Positions 58,348 to 58,715 are shown, numbered from the stretch's first letter. The stretch: 64,000 nucleotides of DNA from a virus (IMGVR_UViG_3300035498_000724:5952-69951); one strand, 5' to 3'. The notes: generated by a model not told the origin, from the letters alone. Translations and numbers: made by a program.

Positions 58348-58715
58348 TGGTGGAGCTGAGGGGAGTTGAACCCCTGTCCAAATTAAAATATTAAATAATC
58401 TTTCTACAAGTTTAGTTTATTGTTCATCTTTATTTTATAAACTACAATAAAACAAAAGTTTATAAAATGCCTTCTATGTTTGAGCTATAGCTTCATCTCA
58501 AAAAGCAATGTCCGAAGCGCAGTTACTTTAAATCGACACCTATAAAAAGTCAGTAACCTACCTTATATAGATGATAGCTGACTAGGCAGCTATTAATTCT
58601 GCATTTTTGTTTGCGTTTATATTTATTGGAATCCTTTTATAGTAGACCTCGGATTACCATTCTACTACTTGCTTAATCATCTTTCTCTTAATCTGTCGAA
58701 ACCAAATACAACCCC
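58348..58715 (-). ncRNA. ssrA: tmRNA (ssrA)
   Basis: Minus strand starts GGGGTTGTATTTGGTTTCGACAG (compare the canonical GGGGCTGATTCTGGATTCGACGG). It ends with the T-arm GGGGTTCAACTCCCC followed by CAGCTCCACCA. The internal reading frame GCA AAC AAA AAT GCA GAA TTA ATA GCT GCC TAG gives the tag ANKNAELIAA-stop. 368 nt. Confidence 0.85.

Follow-up and report, generated by a model that had tools for sequence, protein, structure and literature searches.

Introduction

Transfer-messenger RNA (tmRNA) genes have been described in huge phages, some of which also encode SmpB (Al-Shayeb et al. 2020, PMC7162821), and in phage G (PMC12484599). They are one-piece tmRNAs carried by large phages together with big tRNA sets, and a supporting role in translation is presumed. 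Here we describe a tmRNA gene (ssrA) that is alike in these respects and lies between two CRISPR arrays in IMGVR_UViG_3300035498_000724:5952-69951, a stretch of viral DNA of 64,000 nucleotides that is hereafter called the window. Linkage to CRISPR arrays is not mentioned for tmRNAs in the available portions of PMC7162821 and PMC12484599, whereas the tmRNA of the window is flanked by arrays, and its tag, set against the huge-phage tmRNAs, is a shortened derivative of a host-type tag. Although some huge phages encode SmpB, the window and 16 related phage loci yielded no SmpB homologue with queries that detected smpB at E ≤ 1e-29 in five bacterial loci. An earlier interpretation made from the sequence alone (the sequence-only reading) had called virus-encoded tmRNAs rare, which is overstated: they are uncommon yet well documented, both in the two sources above and in the annotated tmRNAs of Streptomyces phages. 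Phage tmRNA is already known as a kind; the present example is distinguished by its shortened tag, and its context is unusual.

In a collection of cultured phages, the only matches were tmRNA 3' ends of Streptomyces and Gordonia phages, several with annotated tag peptides. The tmRNAs of Streptomyces phages Forrest, Jada, and Emma1919 ('Tag peptide: ANSNFALAA*') and of Gordonia phage GodonK share a canonical tRNA-like 3' end with the present gene, but the similarity is limited to ~40 nt of the T-arm and acceptor end, and these genes come from phages of unrelated high-GC hosts, have canonical ALAA tags, and do not lie within CRISPR arrays. Chromosomal ssrA genes of gut Clostridia belong to the same length class (352–367 nt) and have the resume context and the tag core N-[RKE]-E-L...AA of the phage genes, yet they are only 55–67% identical to the window tmRNA and encode the tags ADNRELAYAA, ADNKELAFAA, and ADNRELALAA, in contrast to ANKNAELIAA, ANEELVAA, and ANRELVAA in the phages.

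Regarding the genomic context, engineered polycistronic tRNA-guide RNA (gRNA) arrays, known as PTG, contain guides flanked by tRNA-like elements, so that cutting by host RNase P and RNase Z would release them. Similar designs occur in the window as a unit of tRNA-Cys, leader, half repeat, ~21 nt, and tRNA-Phe, and as the succession of array D, tmRNA, and array C; whereas PTG is synthetic, the window arrangement is natural, uses a tmRNA in addition to tRNAs, and has processing that is predicted. The nuclease encoded next to the tmRNA shares the fold of Cas12f, Cas12m, and TnpB, which work with a trans-activating CRISPR RNA (tracrRNA) or an omega-RNA, and the arrays carry an anti-repeat that is predicted to pair with the repeat. 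This anti-repeat lies in cis, in the leader of each array, whereas the known systems have a separate tracrRNA gene, and the nuclease differs from theirs by its low identity (~10%) and a conserved +1 frame break. In an incomplete literature search, no description was found of natural CRISPR arrays punctuated by tmRNA or tRNAs, or of a leader with a cis anti-repeat; what was found on tRNA-linked CRISPR arrays dealt with engineered constructs, or with tRNA genes serving as attachment sites (Cas12r preprint). The bracketing of guide-RNA arrays by tRNA-like genes is an unusual layout, which we present as a lead rather than as a claim of novelty.

Results

The window encodes a complete one-piece tmRNA

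ARAGORN found a single tmRNA in the window, at positions 58348–58715 on the minus strand, with the tag ANKNAELIAA*. Infernal with Rfam 15 returned RF00023 at identical coordinates with 137.5 bits (E = 1e-53), far above the gathering score of 47 bits, and the alignment covered model positions 1–374 of 374 without truncation. The sequence-only reading, which had proposed a complete ssrA between two arrays and named these two programs as its check, was thus confirmed. The 5' end (GGGGTTGTATTTGGTTTCGACAG) and the 3' end (GGACAGGGGTTCAACTCCCCTCAGCTCCACCA) are both present, the latter comprising the T-arm (GGGGTTCAACTCCCC) and a terminus with encoded CCA (..CAGCTCCACCA). The mRNA-like domain consists of a resume codon, a short open reading frame (ORF) ending in hydrophobic-Ala-Ala, and a stop (GCA AAC AAA AAT GCA GAA TTA ATA GCT GCC TAG). 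The block of tmRNA and arrays is read entirely on the minus strand, a point on which the sequence-only reading had been silent.

For a structural comparison, 5 phage and 13 bacterial tmRNAs were aligned with MAFFT (A3), and the consensus structure from Rfam was projected onto this alignment. Among these 18 sequences, the acceptor stem, T-arm, and inner P2 helix were 100% paired, each with compensatory double changes, and the covariation score was above all 500 shuffles and all slid controls. The 7-bp acceptor stem pairs GGGGTTG with CAGCTCC, and the T-arm pairs GGGGT with ACTCC. At acceptor pair 5, the phages have U:G or C-G and the bacteria A-U or G-C, while the G3:U pair (G3:U70), an alanine identity element, is invariant (18/18 phage and bacterial sequences). 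The internal helices were 30–80% paired by MAFFT-based counts, which exclude pseudoknot partners; we attribute this lower pairing mainly to the misalignment of variable pseudoknot regions by MAFFT.

Seven phage copies of the tmRNA could be aligned end to end (A1), and the window copy was 69–72% identical to the others. The tag frame survives an in-frame 6-nt indel and synonymous changes (AAC/AAT and TAG/TAA) among the phage copies (A1 and A3). These tmRNAs are more diverged than the ssrA genes of candidate hosts, yet they score far over the RF00023 threshold. Overall, the gene has the defining features of a standard one-piece tmRNA in its full-length model match, its tRNA-like domain, and its mRNA-like domain, and we regard its identity and phage origin as very nearly certain.

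The tmRNA gene lies in phage DNA and is syntenic in related contigs

The window is phage DNA and contains no prophage junction. It encodes a tape measure protein, a tail protein, an endolysin, a split DNA polymerase, NrdD, DnaB-like and UvrD-like helicases, a RecJ-like exonuclease, and an RNA ligase/kinase/phosphatase, as well as 11 tRNA genes that are all on the strand of the tmRNA. The G+C content is uniform (~30%), and no bacterial housekeeping genes were found among the window ORFs scanned. No close relative emerged when the 54–61 kb region was compared by megablast with 50,697 phage records, and in these records a distant blastn search with the replication genes hit only the DNA polymerase III of Clostridium phage Amboise (65%). 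In IMG/VR, neither the tag segment nor the 5' end of the tmRNA had any exact match. The relatives described below were reached via the nuclease protein and not via the tmRNA sequence.

Metagenome assemblies contain ~29 relatives of the 481-aa ORF next to the tmRNA, and many of these lie on contigs of 100–210 kb from animal-gut samples. The relatives keep the gene order of tRNA cluster, Band_7 protein, small ORFs, arrays, nuclease, RNA ligase, and helicase. In L004 and L007 (tag ANEELVAA), as in L008–L011 (ANRELVAA), the nuclease gene has a tmRNA directly upstream, and a phage-type tmRNA occupies this slot in L067 too; in total, tmRNA synteny extends to at least five distinct related phage contigs. 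The tmRNA-leader-repeat junction is also shared by L135, a 107-kb metagenome contig whose available stretch ends within the first repeat. No tmRNA was found within 10 kb of the nuclease gene in L002, L003, or the distant L012–L014. Since L002 and L003 retain the unit of leader, array, and nuclease with no tmRNA nearby (in L002, a ROS/MucR ORF occupies its slot), the tmRNA is embedded in the predicted CRISPR operon yet not required by it, and it probably has a role apart from CRISPR. Most likely, as the sequence comparisons suggest, the tmRNA has been retained under selection in a clade of phages of roughly 100–200 kb. L067 itself (DVHP01000134.1, 5087 bp) is a contig in the metagenome-assembled genome (MAG) of 'Ca. 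Ventrenecus avicola', and its tmRNA is 97% identical to that of L008. Because it has a phage-type tmRNA and the phage gene order, L067 is taken as a phage fragment mis-binned into a bacterial genome, and its binning is at most a weak hint about the host.

The 3' ends of ssrA genes are classic integration targets, and the sequence-only reading had suggested such a role here and proposed a search for an attachment-core repeat. An attachment site would appear as a duplicated ssrA 3' segment, usually near an integrase. The 3' 80 nt of the tmRNA had no exact repeat of ≥13 nt elsewhere within the 64-kb window, no integrase was found among the 30 ORFs scanned, and the gene is complete rather than a 3' fragment as in an attachment remnant. 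The suggestion was therefore abandoned.

The tag differs from those of the probable host group

When one genome per species was scanned with the 5' end of the tmRNA itself (GGGGNTGTATTTGGTTTCGACA) as the seed, matches were obtained in >120 contigs, and those listed were overwhelmingly MAGs of uncultured low-GC gut Clostridia (for example, Clostridium sp. CAG:571, CAG:273, and Ca. Scatovivens). The window tmRNA and the ssrA genes of gut Clostridia have the 5' 22-mer in common, pair 5 excepted. The codons AAT AGA GAA TTA G are common to the phage ANRELVAA tag and the bacterial tags, with the Asp codon absent from the phage tag and a single GTA in place of GCA-TAC (A3). All phage copies depart alike from the host-type tag, having lost the Asp codon and replaced A-[Y/F/L] with V or I. 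Given the shared 22-mer and tag codons and the subsequent divergence, the phage tmRNA is best explained as captured from the ssrA of its host clade, after which it would have diverged while its tag was consistently shortened to end in VAA or IAA. On this sequence evidence, the probable host group is the uncultured low-GC gut Clostridia. The tag comparison that the sequence-only reading had called for thus sets ANKNAELIAA of the window against ADNRELAYAA and similar tags in the probable host group, and the two differ.

Many CRISPR leaders lie close to tmRNA or tRNA genes

The window contains four arrays (A to D) with 36-nt repeats and unique spacers of ~27–30 nt; arrays D and C, on either side of the tmRNA, were numbered 4 and 3 in the sequence-only reading. 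We assigned the arrays to the minus strand with the leaders at the high-coordinate ends because the repeats degenerate at the low-coordinate ends and the genes and tRNAs of this region are all on the minus strand. Rfam CRISPR-DR22 matches, which were sub-threshold, were also on the minus strand. The last repeat of array D stops 34 nt (~one spacer) short of the tmRNA 5' end. No convincing protospacer was found when 14 spacers were compared with all the retrieved loci and the masked window, the two newest with IMG/VR, and the block with phage records; a 22/23 spacer match in a bacterial P-type ATPase gene and 18/19 matches in recG were judged to be due to chance.

Each array in the window and its relatives, such as L002, L004, L008, L009, and L011, is headed by a conserved element of about 55–65 nt, composed of a GGCAATTTTAGAGTC core, a GC-rich hairpin whose stem varies by compensatory substitutions, a segment of 10–11 nt, and TTTGAGG, followed by the first repeat. 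This leader matched no Rfam family, even at a permissive threshold. The 10–11-nt segment matches the reverse complement of the central part of the array's own repeat and varies with the repeat type, of which there are three (ATATGTAATT with AATTACATA, ATGTGTTAAAT with ATTTAACACA, and ATATGTTATT with AATAACATA). In array C, the leader has the GC hairpin ACGCGAAGGCGT and the anti-repeat ATATGTTATT. The predicted duplex energy was -11.6 kcal/mol for a leader with its own repeat versus -6.6 with other repeat types. The leader and first repeat have a predicted fold like that of a single guide RNA, with UUUUAG:CUAAAA pairing, the hairpin, and an anti-repeat:repeat stem, and for the region between the tmRNA 3' flank and the first array C repeat, both included, folding gave -24.8 kcal/mol (z = -3.1), the anti-repeat:repeat stem having 9 bp. 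Common ancestry of leader and repeat could mimic their covariation.

The sequence-only reading had placed the start of the array C leader 13 nt past the tmRNA 3' end. This is approximately right: in the window, the leader core starts 23 nt past the tmRNA CCA and the flanking TATGTG 17 nt past it, and the tmRNA-to-leader gap is 6–7 nt in L004, L008, and L135, with the junction conserved. Nearly half of the distinct leaders (11/23) begin 5–11 nt past a tRNA (Cys, Glu, Leu, Asn, Asp, or Trp) or tmRNA 3' end, and leader-bearing arrays often stop 27–45 nt (~one spacer) ahead of the 5' end of the next tRNA. A solo unit was also observed, in which the leader core lies 5 nt past the tRNA-Cys 3' end and is followed by the hairpin, a half repeat (..ATAGTACTAAAGG), and ~21 nt up to tRNA-Phe; by analogy, it resembles a single guide RNA between tRNAs.

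A compact type V nuclease is encoded beside the tmRNA

Two ORFs, 56205–57650 (481 aa) and 55832–56290 (152 aa), together correspond to full-length relatives of 599–620 aa. An AlphaFold2 model of the full-length relative P0003 reached a predicted local distance difference test (pLDDT) score of 81 and a predicted template modelling (pTM) score of 0.70, and a Foldseek search with this model retrieved AsCas12f, Cas12m, CnCas12f1, TnpB, Cas12p, and Fanzor2 (E 1e-10 to 1e-7, probability 1.0, ~10% identity). Sequence and profile searches (Pfam, PADLOC, and phmmer against PDB) gave no match, and no named subtype was assigned. With a single RuvC-fold Cas12/TnpB-like effector adjoining repeat-spacer arrays, the locus is of type V. 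The RuvC D/E/D motifs are kept in the window's clade (GVDWGTE, ..TEFN.., and QRDLY).

A +1 frame break occurs near 56294, right after ..GAT AGA GCT CCA/C GGA ATG.. (the slash marks the break). In the window, L002, and L004, a stretch of 27 nt about the break is identical at a protein identity of only ~72%, and both frames are open. The identical 27 nt and the open frames suggest a conserved +1 recoding or a maintained split rather than an error. Full-length relatives read through this point. The CGG at the frame break is a rare codon at the G+C content of the window.

In the distant nuclease clade (L012–L014; P0010–P0025, A2), for which no tmRNA was found within the 10 kb mentioned above, the RuvC-I Asp is lost (GIDxGTE to AINVNTE, D-to-N) and the RuvC-II Glu is replaced by Asp. 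Judging from these substitutions, the nucleases of this clade may bind without cutting.

Promoters predict a common transcript of arrays, tmRNA, and nuclease

A perfect sigma-70-type promoter with an extended -10 element upstream of array D is the probable start of a transcript of array D, tmRNA, array C, and nuclease. It is one of five perfect 12/12 TTGACA-17-TATAAT promoters present on the minus strand within 6 kb (Table 1). From 59321 down to 55832, a consensus scan found no promoter above 10/12 and no credible terminator; two 'terminator-like' calls correspond to the leader hairpins of arrays B and A. The predicted transcript would run from the promoter through leader D, array D, tmRNA, leader C, array C, nuclease, and leader B to array B. 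The order in L008 and L004 is promoter, a 62-aa Cys-rich ORF (or another ORF), tmRNA, leader, short array, and nuclease. Co-transcription with the arrays, which the sequence-only reading had suggested, thus finds indirect support in the perfect promoter upstream of array D, the lack of a strong promoter or terminator as far as the nuclease, and the conserved junction of tmRNA and leader. The tmRNA lies inside the predicted transcript of array D, array C, and nuclease and lacks a strong promoter or terminator; it does not appear to be there incidentally.

The palindrome TTGACAACTAGTTGTCAA contains two of the five perfect promoters and is a possible operator or bidirectional element. The Cys-rich ORF (61–62 aa; L008 9080–9268) is conserved, with the motif ..DCFAFNESE..QCCALTERICN..C.FYK.., and precedes the tmRNA/array/nuclease unit, in L008–L011 directly upstream of the tmRNA. 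It matched no family and could be a small regulator or a zinc-binding partner of the system.

Other features of the RNA-gene island

ARAGORN reported 'tRNA-???' genes with two-base anticodons (tc, tg, and gt), which imply an abnormal anticodon-loop size; they scored 54–56 bits with the Rfam tRNA model and recur across the phage lineage. A link to the +1 recoding site is possible. The GIY-YIG gene located among the tRNA genes is flanked (59860–61000) by long non-coding stretches with tRNA-like fragments, e.g., around 60920–60990, and this region may be a mobile intron or a disrupted tRNA. A kinase/phosphatase/RNA ligase fusion adjoins the RNA-gene island in all relatives; this tRNA-repair enzyme fits a phage that invests heavily in guarding its translation machinery.

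Table 1. Coordinates of the tmRNA, the CRISPR components, and neighbouring features (positions in the window unless a related locus is named)
Feature	Position	Strand	Remarks
One-piece tmRNA (ssrA), complete, 3' CCA encoded	58348–58715	minus	ARAGORN and Rfam RF00023
Tag reading frame, resume codon GCA to TAG stop, ANKNAELIAA*	58582–58614	minus	ARAGORN and alignments
tmRNA 3' flank (small hairpin) and array C leader	58268–58347	minus	core 58310–58324
Array C, 8 repeats	57781–58267	minus	degenerate towards the low-coordinate (trailer) end
Array D, 7 full and 1 truncated 36-nt repeats	58750–59244	minus	
Leader of array D	59245–59306	minus	GGCAATTTTAGAGTC core 59286–59300, GC hairpin, anti-repeat ATGTGTTAAAT, TTTGAGG
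Perfect sigma-70-type promoter	59321–59349	minus	TTGACA, 17 nt, TG-TATAAT; 12/12, extended -10; probable start of the array D/tmRNA/array C/nuclease transcript
Perfect promoters, all five	54246–54274, 54754–54782, 55333–55361, 59321–59349, 59609–59637	minus	
Cys-rich 61-aa ORF preceding the tmRNA operon	59357–59542	minus	
Compact type V (Cas12f/Cas12m/TnpB-fold) effector gene	55832–57650	minus	split, 481 + 152 aa
Split nuclease gene in relatives	L002 10001–11831; L004 10001–11822		
Array B	55410–55754	minus	leader core 55804–55818
Array A	54973–55141	minus	leader core 55228–55242
Arrays B and A with leaders and second perfect promoter	54973–55826	minus	promoter 55333–55361
Solo unit between tRNA-Cys and tRNA-Phe	62191–62279	minus	core 62260–62274
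'tRNA-???' gene	62511–62581	minus	
'tRNA-???' genes in relatives	L009 3057–3130; L011 2515–2588; L012 6880–6967; L013 7562–7647		
GIY-YIG homing-endonuclease gene among tRNA genes	60034–60702	minus	
Polynucleotide kinase/phosphatase/T4-type RNA ligase fusion (tRNA-repair enzyme)	46020–48278	minus	752 aa

Discussion

We propose that a tmRNA captured from the ssrA of the host lineage has been kept in this phage clade and would act as tmRNAs normally do. Given the G3:U pair, host alanyl-tRNA synthetase would charge it with alanine, and host SmpB and EF-Tu would deliver it to stalled ribosomes, where the short degradation tag (A)ANKNAELIAA would be added and the ribosome freed for phage protein synthesis. 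Since neither the window nor the 16 related phage loci yielded an SmpB, trans-translation by the phage tmRNA would need the SmpB of the host, unless smpB is encoded outside the 64-kb window. Ribosome rescue during infection is, on these features, plausible. Within the common transcript, host RNase P acting at the tmRNA 5' end and CCA 3'-end maturation would release the mature tmRNA, and the same cuts would set two further ends, 3' for the last CRISPR RNA (crRNA) of array D and 5' for the tracr-like array C leader. Because the arrays are systematically bracketed by tRNA-like genes, we infer that tmRNA end processing also defines guide-RNA ends; RNase P and tRNA 3'-end processing would then define these ends, with the tmRNA as one punctuation element. 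Judged from sequence features, the complete mechanism, trans-translation via host SmpB with tRNA-like ends serving as processing sites in a guide-RNA operon, is probable.

Several points weigh against this proposal. RF00023 aligns across the pseudoknots PK1–PK4, but with low posterior probability there, and the phage copies score 137–151 bits versus 160–193 for bacterial ssrA, a difference that arises mostly in the pseudoknot region. The phage tag is two residues shorter than the host type and ends in IAA or VAA, not YAA, FAA, or LAA, so that it may or may not still act as a protease degron. The host assignment is indirect, coming from the matches listed in a scan whose seed was the 5' end of the tmRNA itself. 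SmpB could be encoded beyond the 64 kb examined, in a genome of probably ~200 kb, and a weak internal promoter would be compatible with the consensus scanning.

Other explanations were considered. The tmRNA might be kept mainly as a processing or stabilising module of the CRISPR transcript, with ribosome rescue secondary or lost; throughout the lineage, leaders abut tRNA or tmRNA 3' ends and arrays stop one spacer-length before tRNA or tmRNA 5' ends, and the tmRNA has no obvious promoter or terminator of its own. However, any tRNA could punctuate a transcript, so that a whole 368-nt tmRNA with a resume codon, an in-frame tag, and a stop showing synonymous variation would be left unexplained, and L002 and L003 have the leader/array/nuclease unit without it. 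We therefore consider this explanation unlikely.

Alternatively, the gene might be a host-manipulating variant whose shortened tag alters the fate of tagged proteins, or which out-competes the host tmRNA, for example blunting stalled-ribosome sensing or proteolysis-dependent defences. The tag departures shared by all phage copies, namely the loss of the Asp codon and the change of A-[Y/F/L] to V or I, would agree with such a role, and phages are known to interact with trans-translation, according to a statement in PMC7162821 that cites Janssen & Hayes. The phage tag nevertheless retains the C-terminal hydrophobic-Ala-Ala pattern of ssrA degrons, and its sequence gives no sign of altered proteolysis. 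VAA termini, moreover, are found in natural bacterial tags. Host manipulation of this kind seems unlikely.

A decaying, non-functional copy of a captured host ssrA, as its Rfam score below those of bacterial copies (137.5 versus 160–193 bits) and the low-confidence alignment of the pseudoknot region might suggest, is hardly credible for a full-length gene whose tRNA-like domain helices are perfectly paired with compensatory changes, whose tag frame is held across copies ~30% diverged, and which several lineages keep at one locus. The last explanation, the host's own ssrA or an attachment-site remnant in a window spanning a prophage junction or integration module, could draw on the general role of ssrA 3' ends as integration targets and on the similarity of the tmRNA's 3' 36 nt to many tmRNAs, but it is rejected as extremely improbable because phage arrays with repeats of a single family flank the complete gene on both sides, its position is conserved in several phage contigs, it is only 55–67% identical to recovered chromosomal ssrA genes, no repeat of its 3' end of ≥13 nt lies elsewhere in the window, and no integrase or housekeeping gene was found among the ORFs scanned.

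Taken alone, the tmRNA described here is a well-supported case of a phage, belonging to those of uncultured gut Clostridia, capturing a host ssrA whose tag was then shortened. It provides a concrete pair of tags, the host-type ADNRELAYAA and the phage ANRELVAA and ANKNAELIAA, and comparing them could reveal if phages adjust what becomes of rescued proteins. Beyond this, and more tentatively than for ribosome rescue with boundary processing, the locus might represent a natural 'tRNA-gRNA' operon, possible though short of probable, in which a compact type V effector not classified before would be served by many mini-arrays with cis tracr-like leaders; the arrays, being bracketed by tRNA genes and here by a tmRNA, would be excised from polycistronic transcripts by host tRNA enzymes, and the tmRNA would have a dual role in rescuing ribosomes and in marking crRNA processing sites. 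If so, the tmRNA would link the expression of phage CRISPR components to the phage's island of translation-support RNAs. If processing at these boundaries frees both crRNAs and leaders, it would be a natural counterpart of engineered tRNA-gRNA multiplexing and a new form of type V guide maturation, based on a compact effector (about 610–630 aa) that current profiles miss.

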